Positions 1-32,645 of a stretch of DNA of 36,299 nucleotides are shown here, piece by piece. How positions within the stretch are numbered: the stretch's first letter is position 1; each line of letters starts with the position of its first letter. This DNA comes from Alphaproteobacteria bacterium (lineage in GTDB: Bacteria; Pseudomonadota; Alphaproteobacteria; Rs-D84), in NCBI GenBank assembly GCA_017546085.1, contig JAFYXQ010000010.1, positions 1 through 36,299 on the forward strand. The letters are read 5' to 3'. The position numbers and the translations under genes are program-made. The notes beneath the pieces are model-generated. The model was not told the origin of the DNA, ran no database searches, and saw only the letters and a list, made by a program, of their open reading frames with translations.

Positions 1-56
1 GCGTTTTAATATTGGTATGTGGTGTGTTGGTTTGTGTCATGCAACAATTTGTTGCA

Positions 57-158
57 CTGGTTCGACAATGAGTAAACGAGAACAAACAAAGTGCAGTTCG
101 AGTGCTAACGAATGCCCCACAGGCATTTTTATGCCGAGGGAATCAGCTGCCCCAACCA
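57..158 (+). repeat. tRNA 3'-end fragment (Gln-like) with a 74-nt structured insert in the T-loop
   Basis: CTGG-TTCGA-[66..139]-GAATC-AGCTGCCCCA-A-CCA. The insert shares CAATGA, CAAACnnAGTnCAG and GAATGCCCCRCAGGCAT-loop-ATGCCGAGG with the reverse complement of 26794-26866. No D arm or anticodon arm is recognisable. The Gln-like assignment rests only on the acceptor 3' strand. Confidence 0.75.
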
Positions 159-166
159 AGATTGAT

Positions 167-192
167 AAACCCGCCGATAAAGGCGGGTTTTT
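167..192 (+). terminator. intrinsic terminator after the tRNA-like fragment
   Basis: AAACCCGCC-GATAAA-GGCGGGTTT followed by T-rich sequence. Confidence 0.8.
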
Positions 193-217
193 GTTTTGTT
201 TTCTAGTATTTTCACTG

Positions 218-253
218 AGTTCGAAAGTGGTGAAAAATCACCACTTTCGAACT
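218..253. repeat. perfect 16-bp inverted repeat
   Basis: AGTTCGAAAGTGGTGA-AAAA-TCACCACTTTCGAACT, followed by a T-run on the + strand. Confidence 0.8.
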
Positions 254-267
254 TTTTTGTAATATAA

Positions 268-627
268 TTATTTACAACCAACAAAAGCCCAATTGTCGCC
301 ACCTTCGATAGGTTCTGCAATCATGGTGCGGATTGTAAAGTTTTCTTTGCATGTTCCTGGGTCGTCAAATGATACTTCTGTATAAACATGTTCTGTATCA
401 GCATATAATTCTTCCAAATTCAATTGACCACCAGCCCTAAATTTGCCATTTGGTTGCTGTTGTTTTACTTGTTGTGCCCATTCTTGTTCTGCAGGACATT
501 TATAAACCAGATGAAATTCGGTCGTTTCTATTCTTTCGCAACCTTCAAAAATGGAATCATATTTGCTGTAATCCTGGGCACATGCACTCAATGTGATGAT
601 TGGCAAAATAAAAAATAATTTTTTCAT
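268..627 (-). CDS. hypothetical lipoprotein
   Basis: 119 aa. MKK plus hydrophobic stretch and lipobox LSAC, RBS AAGGAG upstream. Confidence 0.85.
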   Translation of the reverse strand: MKKLFFILPIITLSACAQDYSKYDSIFEGCERIETTEFHLVYKCPAEQEWAQQVKQQQPNGKFRAGGQLNLEELYADTEHVYTEVSFDDPGTCKENFTIRTMIAEPIEGGDNWAFVGCK

Positions 628-732
628 GTTTTCTCCTTTTCTGTGTTCGTTATTATATTATAAATGTGTTCTTAAAATCCAGTATTTTTTGCCCGATTTC
701 CAATAACTCGGCTTGCAAATTGCATGACAAGC

Positions 733-781
733 CCAACCAATATTCAAACGCCCCGGAATGGGGCGTTTGAATATTGGTTGG
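733..781. terminator. long perfect hairpin (22-bp arms) downstream of the 795..2363 gene; terminator-like
   Basis: CCAACCAATATTCAAACGCCCC-GGAAT-GGGGCGTTTGAATATTGGTTGG. There is no clear U-tract, so the terminator role is uncertain. Confidence 0.6.
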
Positions 782-794
782 TTGTTGGTTGTTT

Positions 795-2363
795 TTATAT
801 GCATTTTCCTGTTTTCTTATCATATTTTTTGCCGGGGGTAAGGGCGCATTTTGCGGCGCGGTCTTCGTCTTCGGTGCGTTTGACACATTTATCCCCGTTC
901 CAGCGATATCCGGCGATGGTTGCGCATTGTGTTTTGTTTGCAGATTCAGCCCGTTCGGCTGCAGGTTTTATTAATTTTTTCTTATCCTTAGCGGTGGATG
1001 TAGAGCCCCCCTCAGAAGGGGTGGTGTTGTTTGTTTGGTTTTTATTATCTTTTTTCGTTTTCTTTTCTTTACTGTTTTCTTTTGATGACAGCTTACCGTC
1101 ATCACCATCTTCTTCAAATGTTTCGTCGTGTTCGTCCTGGGCCTTGTCAAGGGCCTTGTCTGCCTTGTGTCTGTCGACCGCGCGGTCAATTGCGCCCGAT
1201 GTAACCGCACCAACCGCCATACCAACACCCGAACCCATTAATGCGTTTGTGGCCGATGTTTGTGCGCGTGTTAAACGCTGGGCATTTTCCATAAAGGTTG
1301 TTATGTCAACACCAAACCAATTTGGTGTGCAATCAAATGTGGAACCGGCATATGCCTTTTTCGATGAATATAGGGTGTTATTTTCGCCCGCATAGAAATT
1401 AACAGTATATACGCAATCCAATGTGCGTTCGTCAAACATTGCGCCCAATCGACCGCATGATTCACGCATTTGATCGCGTAATTGGTATAAACGCTTTTCG
1501 TCGTTTGATACCTGCGATTCTGCATCAAGTCGCAGGGTGCCAAATACTTCCATCGTACGGGCGGGTAGGCCGCTATCCTGTTGCTTGCATTCGTTGGCAA
1601 TTTTTGAACATTTCTGAACCGCGGCATCGCCATTTTTCTTGCTAAGGCATTTTGTGAATGTTTGACCGCATTCTGCAACAATGCAACTGTTGTAATTATT
1701 GCCACAATCAACAATCGAATTATATAATGCAAATTTTGCGTTTAATTCCATGTCCGCCTTGATTTCAGTGGTAAATAGGCGATATTCTTCGCCGGTGCAG
1801 GTTATATCACGACGGCATGCATCCAATTTGTTACCAAATGTTGTGTCCGTATCACCGGAACATTTTGTAAAATCAGTTCCACATTTGCCCTGCATACAGC
1901 TGCGTAATTTCTGATCGCATTCATTTTTACCGGCGGCCATTGCAACCTTGGCCCGATTGGTGGTTGTGTTTTTTTGTTCCGCAGCATCCGCAGCGGCACG
2001 TTGTTCACGTATTTGTCGGGCAAGTTCCGTTTCAGGTTCGCCTGATATCGTGTTTTCAAACGTTTCATCCAAAACATCATCAAATTGTGATGTCTTGTTT
2101 TCTATTATTTCTGATTCTTGGTATTCGATGTCTTCGATTACGGTGGGTTCGATTTCTGTAACCGATTCGATTTGTTGCGATGTCGCATTTGATGCATTCT
2201 GATCGCGCTGAGCCGGAATTGATGATGCTGTTGACGCAACAGATTTTCGTTGTGTACGGGATACGACGTTCGCTGAATTCGATGTTGATGTAACCAATGA
2301 TAATGCAAATGCAACAAATGCAATTAATCTGATGTGCTTAACATATATATTAGTTGTTTTCAT
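795..2363 (-). CDS. exported cysteine-rich hypothetical protein
   Basis: Long ORF (ATG 2363, alternative GTG 2375). N-terminal signal-like segment, repeated C-x6-C-x4-C-x6-C units, Gly-rich hydrophobic segment, charged tail. Confidence 0.85.
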   Translation of the reverse strand: MKTTNIYVKHIRLIAFVAFALSLVTSTSNSANVVSRTQRKSVASTASSIPAQRDQNASNATSQQIESVTEIEPTVIEDIEYQESEIIENKTSQFDDVLDETFENTISGEPETELARQIREQRAAADAAEQKNTTTNRAKVAMAAGKNECDQKLRSCMQGKCGTDFTKCSGDTDTTFGNKLDACRRDITCTGEEYRLFTTEIKADMELNAKFALYNSIVDCGNNYNSCIVAECGQTFTKCLSKKNGDAAVQKCSKIANECKQQDSGLPARTMEVFGTLRLDAESQVSNDEKRLYQLRDQMRESCGRLGAMFDERTLDCVYTVNFYAGENNTLYSSKKAYAGSTFDCTPNWFGVDITTFMENAQRLTRAQTSATNALMGSGVGMAVGAVTSGAIDRAVDRHKADKALDKAQDEHDETFEEDGDDGKLSSKENSKEKKTKKDNKNQTNNTTPSEGGSTSTAKDKKKLIKPAAERAESANKTQCATIAGYRWNGDKCVKRTEDEDRAAKCALTPGKKYDKKTGKCI

Positions 2364-2377
2364 CTTTTTCTGCACCC

Positions 2378-3244
2378 TTAATCAATTGTTGCACATGCCG
2401 TGTCATAGAATTTACATAATTGTATTGCCATTGTTTTTTCAAATTCAAAATCGGCGCCGCACTGATTATTCATGTTATTTTTACATACGGTTTCAATGCA
2501 CGATTCGTAAAAACGTTTTTCCGCACAGCCTGATTTTATTTCTGCAATTTTATTTTCACGCGCAGCTGAATACCCCGCAACGATTTTGGCAAGTAATGTA
2601 TCCGCATTCTTAATCATAGAATCGCGTGTCGCCAACAATTCGCCACGTATTTCAGATATGTGTTCATCGCAACCGGACACACTTACACTGCAGGAAGAAA
2701 AGAATTTGTCAAAGTCAGTGTTCGATTCACATTTGCGAAAATCAGATGTGCAATGGTTGTCAGCAAAAATACATAACTGAATTTCTGATTCACATGCGCT
2801 GCGTGATTTTGTATCAAATGCGGTTTCCAATGCACGATTCATTTTTGCTGAAACACCCGCAGCCTTGCAGGATTGTTCAATTAACGTGTCGTATGTATCA
2901 GTTACATCGTCCGTGGTACAGCCGGTAACCTTTTTAATACATTGTGATGTCGCCCATGCGTAACGTTCGCCGGGGTCGGTTGGCGCGTTCTTCAAATCTT
3001 TGTCTGAAATGTTGTATTTTGCAGATGTGCCAACGGATACAGAACGCATCCCCTTGGGCGTTTTGGGTTCACCCGCAGATGATGTGCCACAATACTGACA
3101 ACGCGCAGCAGGATTCGCAGATAAATTTAATGCACATGCAGAATCCAAACAGCGTGTCAAATTTGCGCGTGAACATGTGGTTGCCGCGTTGGCGGTGCCA
3201 ATGGATGCGATGCTAAGTGCTAAAAATAATGTGTGTGGTTTCAT
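2378..3244 (-). CDS. exported cysteine-rich hypothetical protein
   Basis: 288 aa from MKPHTL (ATG 3244). Signal peptide ending ANA-A, many Cys, close-packed with the downstream gene. Confidence 0.85.
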   Translation of the reverse strand: MKPHTLFLALSIASIGTANAATTCSRANLTRCLDSACALNLSANPAARCQYCGTSSAGEPKTPKGMRSVSVGTSAKYNISDKDLKNAPTDPGERYAWATSQCIKKVTGCTTDDVTDTYDTLIEQSCKAAGVSAKMNRALETAFDTKSRSACESEIQLCIFADNHCTSDFRKCESNTDFDKFFSSCSVSVSGCDEHISEIRGELLATRDSMIKNADTLLAKIVAGYSAARENKIAEIKSGCAEKRFYESCIETVCKNNMNNQCGADFEFEKTMAIQLCKFYDTACATID

Positions 3245-3265
3245 ATTCTCTCTATAATTGAAAAA

Positions 3266-3294
3266 ATTATAACAAAAAATGTTGTTGGGTGCAA
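3266..3294 (-). promoter_or_regulatory. putative sigma70 promoter of the Cys-rich gene pair
   Basis: TTGCAC-N17-TATAAT on the minus strand. Confidence 0.55.
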
Positions 3295-3315
3295 AGAAAA
3301 AATATAAAACAGAAC

Positions 3316-3343
3316 TTGACAACGTTGATATTTTGTCTATAAT
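3316..3343 (+). promoter_or_regulatory. putative sigma70 promoter
   Basis: TTGACA-N16-TATAAT upstream of RBS AAGGAG. Confidence 0.7.
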
Positions 3344-4172: not shown

Positions 4173-7100
4173 ATGAAATTTATCAGAATATTGTTGTTTA
4201 CTTTGTTTGTTGCGCCGTTCGCGGCAAATGCTGCGACATCTGAATTTGTAATGGCGGCACAATTGTTGGCGGCAGCGAAAAATGCTGATATTCAGCAGGT
4301 GCAGGCATTGGTTAACAATGGTGCAAATGTGAATTTTATTGACGCAACCGGTGTTTCGATTGTTTGTACGGCATTGATGAATAATGATATTCGTGCGGCG
4401 CAGATTTTACAGATGTATGGTGCCGATGCATCAAAATGCGATCGTCAGATTAAGCAATATAATAATAAAACCAAACCAAGGGATAGGGGTGGGCTGTTCA
4501 GTGGACTGTCGTCAGCCCAGACCATTAGTTTAGCGGCGGCGGGGGCCGCCGTTGTTGTAGGGGGGCTGCTGTTGTTGACAGATGTGTTTGACCCTGGGAA
4601 TGGAAATGATTCGTCTTCTGGTGGTGGGAATCGACCGGGTGGCGGTGGTGGTGGGGCGGATGCCGATGGTACGGCTGCATTTACCGTGCCGTATAGTCCA
4701 GCATATCTTGGGACAGATGGCAAGATAAATACTAGTAACGCAACGTATTTGGCAAATTTGCAATCGTATAATCCGGCCGCAGGTGGTCTGCGTGAACAGG
4801 ATTTTAATTATTTCAGACCGTCTGAACAATCGTTAAATAACTATTTGGTGGATGGAATAGCGGTTCCGCTGCAGAACTATCTGTTGATGATGCACGGTTA
4901 TTCTGCGTTTGCAAATGAATATTTAGGCCAGTCTATATTCCGAGATGCGTCCAAAAATCCAGTTGTGGTATCAAATGCAACAGGCGGCGGAGCCCCTGTG
5001 CGTGTAGGGTTGGTTACTGCAAATGGGATAAATCCAACCGGGGCCGCCGCGCGGGCAGGTGGTATTGAATATGCGTCAAGTGCTGCTGCAGATGCGCCAG
5101 TGTATTTGGTGGACAAGTATTTGAATTATACAAATCCAACAGTTGTGCCCGCGACAGATGATGTACCACAGTCTATTAAAATGGGGACAGAATTGGCGAA
5201 TTTTGATTTGTCAGGTATGGGGACTGCGATGAACCCGTTTGCAAGTTCGTATGATAGTGCCCTTGGGAAAATAATTTCTGGATGGGAAGCAGGTGGTCGT
5301 GTTACTGGTGATTTGATGGGATTTGTCCCTAATGGTCAATTGGGGGTTTTTGTTACTGGTAATGGAAAACAGTGGGTTGATATTGAAAATCCAGAAGAAG
5401 GTGCTGTTATCGGTACGATTGATAAGGTTGGTGATAAACCAAATGCGATTCAAATCGGGGATAAAATCGTAATTAATGGGGTTGATTATGTCATTGGTGC
5501 CGCGTTGACAGATACTACTATTACTAATCCGACAATTACGGTAAATGGTACGATATATAAATTGGCTGAAAATTCAGATATGTTAATAGCAAAATGTGAT
5601 GGTGATGAAACTGTATGTGCAGATGTATCTGATGTCGCAATTTATCAGGGAACAGATGGATTGTTCTATGTAAATTCAATGGGGGGAAATTCTATTAATG
5701 CTGTTTATACGGTGAATTCTGGTAATTTATATGCCGCTAAGGAATTACAAGATGCTGATTTTAAGAATTTTGAAGCTTTATATCTTGCACGTGGTGTAAC
5801 CAGTGATGTTATTGCAAATGCTGGTTTAATTGATGCTTCACGCGCGATAGATTATTTGTCAGTTAGTGGATTTAAAAACTTGATTGATTATGTCGGGGGG
5901 ACGCCTGTGCAGTTATATGTTGATAGAATTAATATGGCATATGATAGAAATTCGGATGATGTAAATTCGCAGGGGCAGTATGCAAACGGAATGTTTGGTG
6001 CATATAGTGCTGGGGCGCCGATTATTGTTATGCCTGCGGGGGAATTTGCGTTTGGAAACGGGGCTGGGAAATCAGCGACGGTATTGGATGCGACATTTGA
6101 AAATTATGCGCCTGCGTTGTATGATAATAATTTAAATCATATGTTTATGACAGTTGTTGCAGTTAACCATAAAAAAGGAACTGATGCTGCGACATCCATT
6201 GAAAATTATGGTAATGGCACGGGCGACAGTTTTGGAAAACTTGGGTTATCGACATGGGTTGATAATGGTGGAACAACCGATGTTGCCACTGATGATATAA
6301 CATATATGTCCCGTAAATGTGGCGCAACAGGGGTTGGCGTTGGATCAATTGATCCATGGTGTTTTGCTGCTGCAGGTCCAACTGCTGAAATGGCGACAGC
6401 GACTGCTGCGGGGGCTGTTGCATCGTTACAGGGGGCGTTTGATTATATGACAAATCCGCAGATTTATTTGTTGATGGCATTGACATCTGATGGTTATTTG
6501 TTGGGTACAGATAATTCTGGAAACACATTTACAGTGGATACATTAAAATCGTATTTGCAGGCAATGTATGCGTTACCGGGTGAATACAATGAATCAACAT
6601 TATCATCAGCGGATTATTTGAAAAGTTTTGCTGAGGTTTACGGATATGGTTTGATAAATCTTGAACGTGCAATGACACCTGGTAAATCGGTTTATTTCTT
6701 TGATGGAAATAAAATTGTTTCTGCGAATGGTAATGCGTATTGGCGTGCGGCAACAGGTACCAGTTTTAAGCCGTCTTCTGTGCTGAATATACGTGGTTCA
6801 ACGGTTCGTGCGCCGTTCTATGATGTGTTACAAAGTGTTGATGGAAGTTTGTCTTTGCCACGTGTTTGGGAAAATGAATTTGCAATGGGAAACGATGATA
6901 AACGTGGTTTGTATATGGGCGATGTCTTGGGTGATTTGAAAACACGTCGTGAAGATGCATTGACAACGAATGTTGGAAATATGTCTTTTTCAATGGCGAT
7001 GTCAGAACGTGCGTATGCAGATAATTTTAATGGACTTGATTATTTAAGTCTGGGATATAAATCGGGGAATTGGAATTTTGGTGCATCGTATCAGCACTAT

Positions 7101-7910
7101 TTGACAGATGGTATGTCTAGATTTGATGGTGTTGCAAATCCTGTTTTGGGATTGATGTCAAATGCTGTTGTGTCTGATGTAAAATATAATTTGGGAAATT
7201 TGTCATTTGGGGCACGTGCATTTTCTGGGGCGATTACAGACGAAGGCTTGCTTGAAAATGATCCGACGATTACTGCGGAATATATACCTGCAACGTTGGG
7301 GTTGATGCAGGGGGCGCAGTCTGATGTTATGTGGTCGAATGATAAATTTGCGTTTGGCGCAACCCTTGGTATGGCGCGTGAAACGGATACGTTGCTTGGT
7401 GCATATACGGATGGTTTACTAAATTTTGGGGCAGGTGATACAACATATGTTGATTTGGTCGCAAAATATAATCCGACAAATTTGCTGAATTTTATGGCGC
7501 GCGCAACATTTGCCCATACCACGTCTGATGCTGCGGGCAATTTTGTATTGGGTTTATCTGATATTAATTCTAATTCATTTGCGGTTGCGGCAAATGTTGG
7601 GAATTTTGAATTTGCGGTTGCGCAGCCTTTGGCAATAACGGCTGGAACAATGAAATACGCATATGCGAATTATGATGTTGTTGGAAATGGGGATATGTAT
7701 GAATTAGACGTTGTTGATACACATATTGCTGATTTATCATTGCGTCCTGATAAACGTGAATTGCGTTTTAGTGGTACGTATCGTCATAATTTTGGTGAAT
7801 TTACAGATGGGGCATTTGGGTTTATTTATCGTGTAAATCCAAACCATACTGATGATTTTGGAAATGAATCTATATTTATGTTGAAAATGACCCATCGTGT
7901 GGGGATATAG
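4173..7910 (+). CDS. large exported protein: ankyrin-like N-terminus, degenerate S8 subtilase-like domain, C-terminal beta-barrel-like region
   Basis: 1245 aa. Signal peptide, ankyrin-like LLAAAKNADIQQVQALVNNGANVN, S8-associated motifs CG...WCFAAAG and YGYGLINLERAMTPG, alternating beta-strand C-terminus. Catalytic motifs are altered. Confidence 0.8.
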   Translation: MKFIRILLFTLFVAPFAANAATSEFVMAAQLLAAAKNADIQQVQALVNNGANVNFIDATGVSIVCTALMNNDIRAAQILQMYGADASKCDRQIKQYNNKTKPRDRGGLFSGLSSAQTISLAAAGAAVVVGGLLLLTDVFDPGNGNDSSSGGGNRPGGGGGGADADGTAAFTVPYSPAYLGTDGKINTSNATYLANLQSYNPAAGGLREQDFNYFRPSEQSLNNYLVDGIAVPLQNYLLMMHGYSAFANEYLGQSIFRDASKNPVVVSNATGGGAPVRVGLVTANGINPTGAAARAGGIEYASSAAADAPVYLVDKYLNYTNPTVVPATDDVPQSIKMGTELANFDLSGMGTAMNPFASSYDSALGKIISGWEAGGRVTGDLMGFVPNGQLGVFVTGNGKQWVDIENPEEGAVIGTIDKVGDKPNAIQIGDKIVINGVDYVIGAALTDTTITNPTITVNGTIYKLAENSDMLIAKCDGDETVCADVSDVAIYQGTDGLFYVNSMGGNSINAVYTVNSGNLYAAKELQDADFKNFEALYLARGVTSDVIANAGLIDASRAIDYLSVSGFKNLIDYVGGTPVQLYVDRINMAYDRNSDDVNSQGQYANGMFGAYSAGAPIIVMPAGEFAFGNGAGKSATVLDATFENYAPALYDNNLNHMFMTVVAVNHKKGTDAATSIENYGNGTGDSFGKLGLSTWVDNGGTTDVATDDITYMSRKCGATGVGVGSIDPWCFAAAGPTAEMATATAAGAVASLQGAFDYMTNPQIYLLMALTSDGYLLGTDNSGNTFTVDTLKSYLQAMYALPGEYNESTLSSADYLKSFAEVYGYGLINLERAMTPGKSVYFFDGNKIVSANGNAYWRAATGTSFKPSSVLNIRGSTVRAPFYDVLQSVDGSLSLPRVWENEFAMGNDDKRGLYMGDVLGDLKTRREDALTTNVGNMSFSMAMSERAYADNFNGLDYLSLGYKSGNWNFGASYQHYLTDGMSRFDGVANPVLGLMSNAVVSDVKYNLGNLSFGARAFSGAITDEGLLENDPTITAEYIPATLGLMQGAQSDVMWSNDKFAFGATLGMARETDTLLGAYTDGLLNFGAGDTTYVDLVAKYNPTNLLNFMARATFAHTTSDAAGNFVLGLSDINSNSFAVAANVGNFEFAVAQPLAITAGTMKYAYANYDVVGNGDMYELDVVDTHIADLSLRPDKRELRFSGTYRHNFGEFTDGAFGFIYRVNPNHTDDFGNESIFMLKMTHRVGI

Positions 7911-19063: not shown

Positions 19064-19153
19064 GGATGGTTGGCAGAGCGGTCGAATGCGGCGGTCTTGA
19101 AAACCGTTGTGGGGGCAACTCCACCGGGGGTTCGAATCCCTCACCATCCGCCA
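19064..19153 (+). tRNA. tRNA-Ser(TGA)
   Basis: GGATGGT/ACCATCC acceptor stem, GCGGT-CT-TGA-AA-ACCGT anticodon arm, long variable arm, GGTTCGAATCC, G73, encoded CCA. Confidence 0.97.
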
Positions 19154-26773: not shown

Positions 26774-26875
26774 TGGTCGGGGTGACAAGATTCCCTCGGC
26801 ATGGTTTATGCCTGCGGGGCATTCCTGACGATTTTGCTGTACTACGTTTGCAAAATCTAGTCATTGTCGAACTTG
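26774..26875 (-). repeat. tRNA-Pro 3'-end copy with a 73-nt structured insert in the T-loop
   Basis: Sense strand CAAG-TTCGA-[insert]-GAATCTTGTCACCCCGACCA, compared with intact tRNA CAAGTTCGAATCTTGTCACCCCGACCA. Confidence 0.85.
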
Positions 26876-26919
26876 GTACACATTTTATGTGTACGAAATA
26901 CGAACTGACGTACCCACTG

Positions 26920-26959: not shown

Positions 26960-27036
26960 TGGTCGGGGTGACAAGATTCGAACTTGCGACCCCTTGCACC
27001 CCATGCAAGTACTCTACCAGGCTGAGCTACACCCCG
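26960..27036 (-). tRNA. tRNA-Pro(GGG)
   Basis: CGGGGTG/CACCCCG acceptor stem, CTTGC-AT-GGG-GT-GCAAG anticodon arm, TTCGAAT T-loop, A73, CCA. Confidence 0.97.
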
Positions 27037-32560: not shown

Positions 32561-32645
32561 TGGTGCGACTAGGGGGAATCGAACCCCCACAGGTTACCCT
32601 ACAGCATCCTTAGTGCTGCGCGTCTACCAATTCCGCCATAGTCGC
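32561..32645 (-). tRNA. tRNA-Leu(AAG)
   Basis: Sense: GCGACTA TG GCGGAATTGGTAGACGC G CAGCA-CT-AAG-GA-TGCTG, long variable arm, GGGGG-TTCGATT-CCCCC, TAGTCGC A CCA. Confidence 0.95.

Follow-up and report, generated by a model that had tools for sequence, protein, structure and literature searches.

Transfer RNA (tRNA) genes are classic landing sites for mobile DNA, which enters them by way of integrases. Williams is said to have recognized, in 2002, a T-loop sublocation class among the integrase islands of tRNA genes. REP/REPIN–RAYT elements, miniature elements of the IS200/IS605 type and Rickettsia palindromic elements are hairpin-based, gene-less and multi-copy, and are tolerated in RNA-gene-like sequence. 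The mobile double-hairpin elements and GC clusters of mitochondrial genomes, described by Paquin and colleagues in 2000, are reportedly short and non-coding, fold into two stem-loops with compensatory change, are present in many copies in a genome and enter intergenic as well as structural-RNA sequence. The double-hairpin elements of Allomyces mitochondria are mobile according to work cited in PMC3787672. Behind fungal mitochondrial atp6 and cob lie endonuclease open reading frames (ORFs), followed by a partial C-terminal duplicate (PMC6279837). SegB, a GIY-YIG enzyme encoded beside phage tRNA genes, drives recombination-dependent tandem amplification of a tRNA-plus-segB unit (PMC13096335). 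Here we describe a 75-nucleotide (nt) insert, element S, at the start of a 36,299-nt contig of an alphaproteobacterium (GTDB lineage Rs-D84; assembly GCA_017546085.1, contig JAFYXQ010000010.1), the whole of which is called the window. S splits the T-loop of a partial tRNA gene copy and belongs to a family of inserts found across the genus.

The window begins with the first base of contig C46 of the source genome, G000, which comprises 0.82 Mb in 62 contigs and is 94.6% complete. Contigs of G000 are labelled C##, genomes G### and fetched loci L###. Window 40–158 reproduces part of the 3′ end of tRNA-Gln(CUG) and is non-functional; S splits its T-loop between G57 and A58. The parts of this locus are as follows:

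1–33 (plus): terminator right arm (in relatives, this terminator lies behind the upstream tRNA-Gln(CUG)) and start of the spacer; truncated by the contig end.
40–56 (plus): lead hairpin TGCAACAATTTGTTGCA, palindrome TGCAAC-AATTT-GTTGCA, preceding the half T-arm.
57–65 (plus): half T-arm CTGGTTCGA (CTGG TTCGA), consisting of the T-stem 5′ strand and the 5′ half of the T-loop and ending at tRNA position 57.
66–140 (plus): element S, 75-nt insert with two hairpins, matched by a covariance model.
141–158 (plus): tRNA-Gln(CUG) tail copy AATCAGCTGCCCCAACCA, from T-loop position 58 to CCA, without one T-stem C.
167–197 (plus): intrinsic terminator, the native trailer of tRNA-Gln(CUG), with a stem-loop at 167–190 and then a T run.
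217–254 (plus): second hairpin GAGTTCGAAAGT...ACTTTCGAACT, the native downstream flank of both tRNA-Gln genes.
728–812 (plus): partial second copy of the left part of the unit, with a CCCAACCA remnant (Gln-type 3′ end), hairpin and spacer.

When the flanks of S are joined without the insert, they form a T-arm, the acceptor 3′ strand and ACCA, with one surplus A at the junction and a T-stem one C short. The junction A can be assigned to either side of S, and the end of the insert is hence ambiguous by one base. The original prediction, made from the letters of the window, had located an insert in a T-arm at 66–139, within one base of the boundaries given by the covariance model. The matching stretch of the cognate tRNA is TTGGTTCGA; its T-stem 5′ strand is TTGG, and not CTGG. 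Neither ARAGORN nor Rfam calls a tRNA at 1–200, where only tRNA positions ~50–57 and 58–76 are present, with S between them.

In the insert-free loci L052, L054, L067, L074 and L075, the trailer AGATAGACAAACCCGCC...GGCGGGTTTTT lies directly 3′ of the intact tRNA, and relatives with an empty site also have the hairpin of 217–254. Because insert-free relatives show the tRNA followed by a terminator like 167–190 and a hairpin like 217–254, the tail in the window carries the native trailer. Within G000, the motif of this hairpin is found only here and behind tRNA-Gln(UUG) on C44 (C44:7267–7350). Each arm of the hairpin contains a T-loop-like palindrome, TTCGAA, and the hairpin is kept at both tRNA-Gln sites in relatives.

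The tail had been described as Gln-like with a U1:A72 pair, and its cognate gene in relatives is indeed tRNA-Gln(CUG), with the 5′ end TGGGGCA... and the 3′ end ...TGCCCCAACCA. Among the 120 other genomes of the genus, GGTTCGAATCCAGCTGCCCCAACCA (up to two mismatches) occurs in 108, mostly once, and the tRNA 3′ end AATCCAGCTGCCCCAACCA is present in 108 as well. ARAGORN identifies tRNA-Gln(ctg) in 27 of 30 fetched Gln(CUG) loci, the other three being copies truncated at the anticodon loop. The order of parts in L073 is that of the window: tRNA, terminator (with a right arm equal to window 1–16), spacer, palindrome, CTGGTTCGA, S and tail. L029 is a second orthologue, and window 1–33 is collinear with L073, L029, L060 and L065. 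By the geometry of L073, the CCA end is expected ~21 nt before window base 1.

An intact tRNA just before base 1, as originally proposed, is thus found in relatives by orthology (L073), but not in this assembly, where the contig starts at base 1. Likewise, the predicted tRNA 3′ end exists in the 108 relatives but has no match in the G000 assembly at its completeness of 94.6%, nor do the 5′ part and the anticodon arm of tRNA-Gln(CUG). Among the 41 tRNAs of G000, the sole glutamine tRNA is Gln(UUG) on C44, which has a different 3′ end. The comparison with relatives supports the presence of a putative intact tRNA-Gln(CUG) upstream in this strain. In G052 (L029/L085), an integrase island has cut off the nearest upstream tRNA-Gln(CUG) copy at the anticodon loop, and 6.4 kb separate this copy from the intact gene. 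This 6.4-kb island (L085, G052:C62:4800–12300) encodes a 359-aa tyrosine integrase adjoining the intact tRNA-Gln(CUG) and is bounded by the tRNA copy that starts in the anticodon loop; an S unit orthologous to that of the window lies just beyond.

Bases 1–16 had been read as the right arm of a terminator. They are 94% complementary to 736–751, the left arm of a perfect 22-bp hairpin, and this reading is backed both by this internal repeat (733–781) and by the orthologues. The hairpin at 733–781 consists of the inverted repeat CCAACCAATATTCAAACGCCCC/GGGGCGTTTGAATATTGGTTGG, starts with CCAACCA and lies ~760 nt downstream of the first left part; bases 1–33 and 763–795 form a direct repeat (79%). 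Four public runs were mapped to window 1–1500. One contig from a DNA run joins window 762 to window 1, and in another DNA-run contig TTGGTTCGAATC directly precedes base 144, which is the empty-site form. Both the interruption of the assembly before base 1 and the joint of 762 to 1 are accounted for by the repeat of the left part at 728–812. The joint, in turn, makes a different arrangement upstream of base 1 possible in some strains. Contigs from three metatranscriptome runs cover parts of 268–645, a short piece at 155–191 and 1051–1083; they leave S uncovered, at a low depth that is uninformative on transcription.

The covariance model, built from the four full S copies of G000, matches the S of the window with an E-value of about 2e-14 to 2e-15, far beyond chance. 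G000 contains five copies, namely two in the window, two more that are full, and one split over two contig ends; the ends of C5 and C60 hold an overlapping S copy. The second copy of the window is part of the following unit:

26774–26894 (minus): Pro-locus unit, with a lead hairpin, CAAGTTCGA, S (26793–26866) and tail AATCTTGTCACCCCGACCA, behind tRNA-Pro(GGG) at 26960–27036.

The two window loci had been proposed to carry the same element, and 66–140 (plus) and 26793–26866 (minus) are two of the five family matches in G000. At the Pro locus, a direct repeat of ~97 nt (tail, terminator and spacer) is present on both sides. The four full copies have a mean column identity of 80%, two hairpins and compensatory change already in 6 of 16 pairs. 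The first hairpin is a variable stem, and the second is GGCAT/ATGCC closed by CCC/GGG. The tandem G·A oppositions suggested for the first hairpin are real for this S subfamily (ACGAGAAC/GTTCGAGT), while other subfamilies have A-U/U-A at this place. A kink-turn in S was considered and dropped: CCC/GGG with a 3′ GA resembles the non-bulged strand, but the 5′ strand is CGCAG and not a bulge plus GA.

The S family is real. Of 60 further genomes from this genus of gut bacteria (G001–G060), 56 have matches, at 1–20 per genome and about 390 altogether (150 listed and 241 unlisted). Outside the genus, 40 genomes from other genera of the order gave one marginal match (E 0.0026). Rfam 15 contains no family for S, its neighbours or the elements X and Z described below at E ≤ 1 (12 loci, with only tRNAs and chance-level matches), and a scan of the window at the gathering threshold returned three tRNAs only. 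No match to window 17–165 was found in 50,697 phage and 72,556 plasmid records, and IMG/VR contained no exact instance of a degenerate pattern for the S core.

Base pairs were counted in 46 S matches (44 distinct) from 33 loci, in an alignment that is fitted to the structure of the model and favours it, with a slide control on the same alignment. On this basis, 96.9% of the cells in the S hairpins are paired, compared with 78.5% after shuffling and at most 41.9% after sliding, and 13 of the 16 base pairs show changes on both sides. Non-Watson–Crick cells, read on the sense strand, comprise 16 G-U, 8 A-C and 13 others. Selection on the S hairpins, to which these counts point, is part of the evidence for the reading that we favor.

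We analyzed the flanks of the best 40 S matches, setting aside six in L037 and L042 that were weak or partial. The left flank ends in TTCGA in 34 of them. A same-strand tRNA is located at most 700 nt upstream of 28 copies, mostly at 65–96 nt, and in 21 of these 28 the right flank equals the last 11 nt of that tRNA. In this way, S is found at the tails of at least 12 different tRNAs, and within T-loop copies S invariably runs in the same direction as the tail. Every junction reads GA|S|A, one A at most being duplicated. The ends of S (CAATGAG... and ...CCGAGGG) are not inverted repeats and there is no duplication beyond the one ambiguous A, so that the features of miniature inverted-repeat transposable elements are absent. 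The T-stem 3′ strand is degenerate in many tails, which therefore cannot form a T-arm.

The lead before most S copies of relatives is a 5–7-bp hairpin of varied sequence (GCAAC/GTTGC, GCCAC/GTGGC, ACAAC/GTTGT or GTACAC/GTGTAC). Elsewhere the place of the lead hairpin is taken by an inverted T-arm, either GGAYGAGAACC or GGATTTGAACCC, which is able to base-pair with the two halves of the interrupted T-loop. We had considered S as a plain insertion into a tRNA-derived half T-arm only, a description that was widened since many leads are inverted T-arms. An origin of the lead hairpin of the Pro locus from P-nucleotides was dropped, because the lead hairpin is a conserved part of the unit at other loci.

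Partial copies of the 3′ end lie behind many tRNA genes of this genus. In G000, the final 19 nt of many tRNAs (A58 to CCA) are repeated exactly 120–170 nt downstream. Two further elements occupy such places. Six copies of the first, element X, are present in G000:

C24:2345–2500: X behind tRNA-Lys(CUU).
C41:13375–13525: X behind tRNA-Met(CAU).
C32:7745–7860: X behind tRNA-Arg(CCU).
C56:8655–8810: X behind tRNA-Glu(CUC).
C60:1060–1220: X behind tRNA-Arg(ACG).
C58:13320–13620: X behind tRNA-Leu(CAA).

The second is element Z, with one location in G000:

C12:1–460: Z, ~190 nt, behind tRNA-Glu(UUC); in relatives at L048, L053, L061, L062, L064, L068 and L070.

X is composed of an inverted-T-arm lead, the cognate half T-arm, a conserved body of 66–95 nt (..CAGTTGGTGAAAACAAG..GTTTGAACC..GCGAAAGGGGCCCA-hairpin-TGGGAAT..AC) and an exact 19-nt tail. 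In all six copies, 7–9 nt ending at the cognate G57 stand just before the body, including the odd GGGTCCG of tRNA-Met, and the body ends at the A58-to-CCA tail. Because their junctions coincide, a single T-loop bond of a partial tRNA copy takes two kinds of insert, S and the X body. Z opens with the tRNA 3′ end as its reverse complement and closes with the same 3′ end in direct orientation; its core is ..AATACGAGAATAGACAATTAG...ATTGTGTATCGAGG. Chimeras of S and Z exist. Many tRNAs lie within ~100–300 nt of G000 contig ends, and some are found on two contigs with differing downstream sequence, with or without X; examples are tRNA-Leu(CAA) at C10:87–171 and C58:13264–13348, and tRNA-Val(GAC) at the end of C37 and the start of C42. 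This suggests that repeats of tRNA tails, or strain variants at those sites, break the assembly.

S also occurs inside X behind tRNA-Leu(CAA), at three sites in four genomes (GCGA|AAAG, AAGA|AACC twice, and GGGA|AATT) with S-less X copies adjacent, and one S copy is antisense in a tRNA-Pro(UGG) tail. At the tRNA-Gln(CUG) site, 11 of 30 loci have S, at least eight have Z (by a regular expression for the Z core, which misses some) and about ten have neither. Copies of S behind the same tRNA in different genomes share a mean identity of 83% (53 pairs), compared with 64% for copies behind different tRNAs within a genome (12 pairs). With context labels assigned from the flank data, the nearest neighbour of an S copy has the same tRNA context in 20 of 40 cases and comes from the same genome in 2 of 40. 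Because S copies cluster by locus, the pattern is site-bound and homing-like, and not that of a transposon spreading within a genome. Several relatives contain tandem arrays of units.

A possible enzymatic partner is found on C44. There, a 95-aa protein that consists of the catalytic domain only (Pfam GIY-YIG, E 3e-16) is encoded 98 nt behind tRNA-Gln(UUG) (C44:6797–7256). The leader of this gene can pair with the CCA end of the tRNA (CCACAC...GTGTGG), covarying with CCACCC...GGGTGG in G020. Relatives of the protein are present in 49 of the 120 other genomes; these small GIY-YIG proteins have 82–95 aa and are encoded behind Gln, Thr, Gly, His and Lys tRNAs. We fetched 30 loci for the protein. 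A same-strand tRNA ends 98–139 nt before the GIY-YIG ATG in 17 of them, 179–272 nt before it in three and 799–1317 nt before it in another three. The remaining seven have no same-strand tRNA in the stretch before the ATG, which in four of them is shorter than 240 nt. After the stop codon, six loci continue with the 3′ half of S (...GAGGG), AAT and a tRNA tail, three with a degenerate tail and two with a whole S unit. The GIY-YIG cassettes of some relatives thus share the right-hand junction of the S unit. A 54-nt segment beginning at A58 of tRNA-His flanks the cassette of L083 on both sides. NCBIfam has no family for the GIY-YIG protein, and no relative of it was confirmed in IMG/VR. A second type of GIY-YIG protein, of 103 aa, is encoded in L081 (G007:C2:83500–86700, ~334–1678, minus), where its gene and the start of a same-strand gene for a 346-aa reverse transcriptase overlap by a few bases, with no tRNA or S nearby.

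With moderate confidence, we favor the explanation that S is not a gene but selfish, homing-type DNA tied to its locus, acting by a mechanism that we infer. In this scheme, ~165 nt of non-coding DNA (a new terminator, spacer, hairpin, half T-arm and S) would part the intact tRNA from its old tail. The gene would stay whole and the old tail would be displaced downstream, the arrangement arising at the DNA level. The spare T-loop would then accept S, or would be made together with it. At one and the same site, some species have the arrangement and others do not; its copies are inherited with the tRNA locus, and S can also insert on its own at GA|A sites. The most speculative step is a nuclease break in the T-loop DNA at 57/58, which would be fixed by repair from a filled allele. 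The candidate nucleases are the 82–95-aa GIY-YIG enzymes encoded directly behind tRNA genes in half of the relatives; ORF-less copies, as in the window, would be gene-less derivatives or hitch-hikers of the GIY-YIG cassettes. As in homing cassettes, a presence/absence polymorphism at one site and site-related copies are observed. An endonuclease ORF inside the insert is absent from the window copy and present in loci of other relatives.

A bolder form of this explanation, which we put forward only tentatively as a possibility, is that S and the X body represent an undescribed class of bacterial selfish DNA that homes to the T-loop, the most conserved short sequence common to all tRNA genes, at the one bond G57|A58. 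Each insertion would be coupled to a duplication of at least the last 19 bases. The driver would be a minimal GIY-YIG nickase of 82–95 aa with two cleavage sites, 57/58 and the tRNA 3′ end, which would leave a staggered break of ~19 nt. Because insertion would be coupled to duplication of the 3′ end, the gene would remain whole and the insert would survive in the spare tail.

Several observations weigh against the homing explanation. No GIY-YIG ORF is found in or near the S copy of the window, nor within ~1.5 kb in any of 60 loci fetched for S or tRNA-Gln(CUG) (tblastn, repeated at a looser threshold). Among G001–G060, 28 genomes hold S without a match to this GIY-YIG protein, so S does not need it to persist. 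The small enzyme is a bare catalytic domain without a DNA-binding domain, and a role in RNA metabolism has been suggested for small bacterial GIY-YIG relatives of this kind (PMC1564403). A nuclease aimed at the T-loop would go on finding its target in the intact tRNA, where the T-loop is retained; the scheme accounts neither for immunity nor for the origin of a tail that matches a new tRNA. "Wrong" tails also occur: in L020 (G051), an X unit behind tRNA-Leu carries ...ATCCGTACACGCCACCA, and in L032 (G048), an S unit behind tRNA-Arg(ACG) carries the Gln(CUG)-like tail AATCCTTGCTGCCCCAATCA. Tails can therefore travel with units or recombine, and are not always duplicated from the target. Finally, the long-term upkeep of the hairpins by compensatory change, even within one locus lineage, suggests function in place at least as readily as a dead scar, and the pair counts come from an alignment that was itself fitted to the structure.

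The strongest rival is a functional RNA with a tRNA-like end, although we consider it rather unlikely. S, X and Z would then be small structured RNAs, produced by read-through of the tRNA gene, whose 3′ end mimics the acceptor end of the adjacent tRNA and which act in place, for example as decoys or in processing or stability, on that tRNA or its enzymes. The double changes in 13 of 16 pairs of both hairpins agree with this proposal, as do the 16 to 8 excess of G-U over A-C cells on the sense strand, the replacement of A-U/U-A by tandem G·A in one subfamily, the constant sense orientation of S in T-loop copies and the inheritance of copies with the locus. The ends of Z could also pair into a 12–13-bp acceptor/T-like stem with an NCCA overhang (ACCA in the form considered here). 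However, the S unit is bracketed by two terminators, between which we found no promoter-like site, and many of its tails could form no T-arm. Occupancy of one tRNA site differs among species, about one-third being empty, and the S copies at three X sites and the antisense copy show insertion behaviour; Rfam, moreover, has no such family. Another proposal is target-primed synthesis, in which a nick at 57/58 would prime copying of an RNA or single-stranded template ending in the tRNA tail; as in non-LTR retroelements, the 3′ junction would be fixed and the target duplication variable in length. The right junction fixed at A58, beside 3′ ends that are conserved in S, X and the GIY-YIG cassettes, is consistent with such a process, together with repeat lengths of 19 to ~100 nt and variable left parts. 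Reverse transcriptase genes are found in three of five S-rich relatives, one of them directly behind a GIY-YIG gene, but they are not near tRNAs or S, and neither G000 nor the other two relatives have one. No direct sign of an RNA intermediate was seen, and we give this reading only a very slight chance.

Two further readings rely on known recombinases, and each lacks one of the defining features that we tested. The tail might be the attR-type site of a miniature integrative element recombined by a tyrosine integrase at the T-loop, with S as the arm next to the core. An intact tRNA followed by a direct 3′-end copy that starts in the T-loop is reportedly the classic signature of T-loop-class integrases (Williams, 2002). 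Direct repeats of the tRNA 3′ end do bound the insert at the Pro(GGG) locus and, for Gln(CUG), in L073. A real integrase island lies in tRNA-Gln(CUG) of G052, though at the anticodon loop, and the tandem arrays of units resemble repeated integration. Nevertheless, no recombinase gene lies in the insert. The integrase-family genes of G000 number only two (341 and 306 aa), beside a single resolvase of 212 aa, and all of them are remote from the S/X loci examined. The inserted ~165 nt are gene-free, one S is found at at least 12 tRNAs with differing overlap sequences, and S also occupies non-tRNA sites inside X, which together make an att remnant improbable. Less probable still is that S is a non-autonomous element of the IS200/IS605 or REP kind, which transposes as single-stranded DNA; an HUH (Y1) transposase would recognize its hairpins and insert it 3′ of a short motif (CGA), without inverted repeats or target duplication. 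S does lack terminal inverted repeats, duplicates at most 1 nt, has subterminal hairpins kept by compensatory change and is oriented constantly to GA|A at all sites. Yet the Y1 transposase (PF01797) is absent from G000 and from five S-rich relatives, the TnpB zinc-ribbon (PF07282) is absent from G000, copies cluster by locus and not by genome, and the targets are nearly all tRNA tails or X.

The remainder of the window contains three tRNAs by both ARAGORN and Rfam:

19064–19153: tRNA-Ser(UGA).
26960–27036 (minus): tRNA-Pro(GGG).
32561–32645 (minus): tRNA-Leu(AAG).

Close to the tail copy, a 119-aa ORF at 268–627 has no NCBIfam family. Two cysteine-rich secreted proteins of 526 and 314 aa without a Pfam family are encoded at 795–3322 (minus), and a 1245-aa protein with a signal peptide, a weak N-terminal ankyrin match and a long glycine/threonine-rich body at 4173–7910 (plus). 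Elsewhere in G000, ARAGORN identifies a permuted two-piece tmRNA with the tag AANDNVRLAMAA (C13:9549–9902, minus), which fits an alphaproteobacterium with a very small genome.

Here, a tiny gene-less structured insert uses one exact T-loop bond in spare tails at a dozen or more tRNAs, in host genomes of only 0.8–1.1 Mb with almost no other mobile DNA. If the small GIY-YIG enzyme drives S, it would be a minimal tRNA-gene-specific nuclease, and the system a bacterial counterpart of the mitochondrial endonucleases with displaced gene ends and of the double-hairpin elements. There are also practical consequences. The repeats break assemblies at tRNA loci, with many of the 41 tRNAs of G000 at contig ends and tRNA-Gln(CUG) lost, and they can also pass for tRNA fragments, att sites or small RNAs. 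In the literature searched, which did not extend to the older Allomyces and Williams papers, no paper was found on T-loop inserts in bacterial tRNA tail copies or on tRNA-linked mini GIY-YIG cassettes.

The attL/attR sites of tyrosine-integrase islands with a T-loop sublocation, as reportedly described by Williams (2002), resemble the S locus in the direct repeat of the tRNA 3′ end from the T-loop and in the intact gene. S differs in having no integrase and no cargo, in lying inside the core and in using many tRNAs for one family. Compared with REP, IS200-type and Rickettsia elements, S has no Y1 found, targets a specific tRNA position and is locus-bound. It differs from the mitochondrial double-hairpin elements in targeting almost nothing but X and the T-loop of tRNA tail copies, in being restricted to one genus and in clustering by locus. 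The free-standing homing ORFs of fungal atp6 and cob (PMC6279837) share with S an intact gene, a selfish insert, a partial 3′ copy, GIY-YIG enzymes among the inserts and variation between relatives. Here, in contrast, the host is a 76-nt tRNA gene with one fixed break in the T-loop, and most copies are ORF-less with a two-hairpin module. Phage T4/T6 SegB (PMC13096335) is likewise a free-standing GIY-YIG gene beside tRNA genes whose breaks lead to tandem repeats of a tRNA-containing unit. SegB is a full-size phage enzyme with whole, unstable tRNA-plus-segB repeats, whereas the system described here has a bare domain of 82–95 aa, a bacterial chromosome and tails of 19–100 nt. We regard S as akin both to hairpin mobile elements and to endonuclease cassettes with a displaced gene end, with a real chance that it forms a distinct class.

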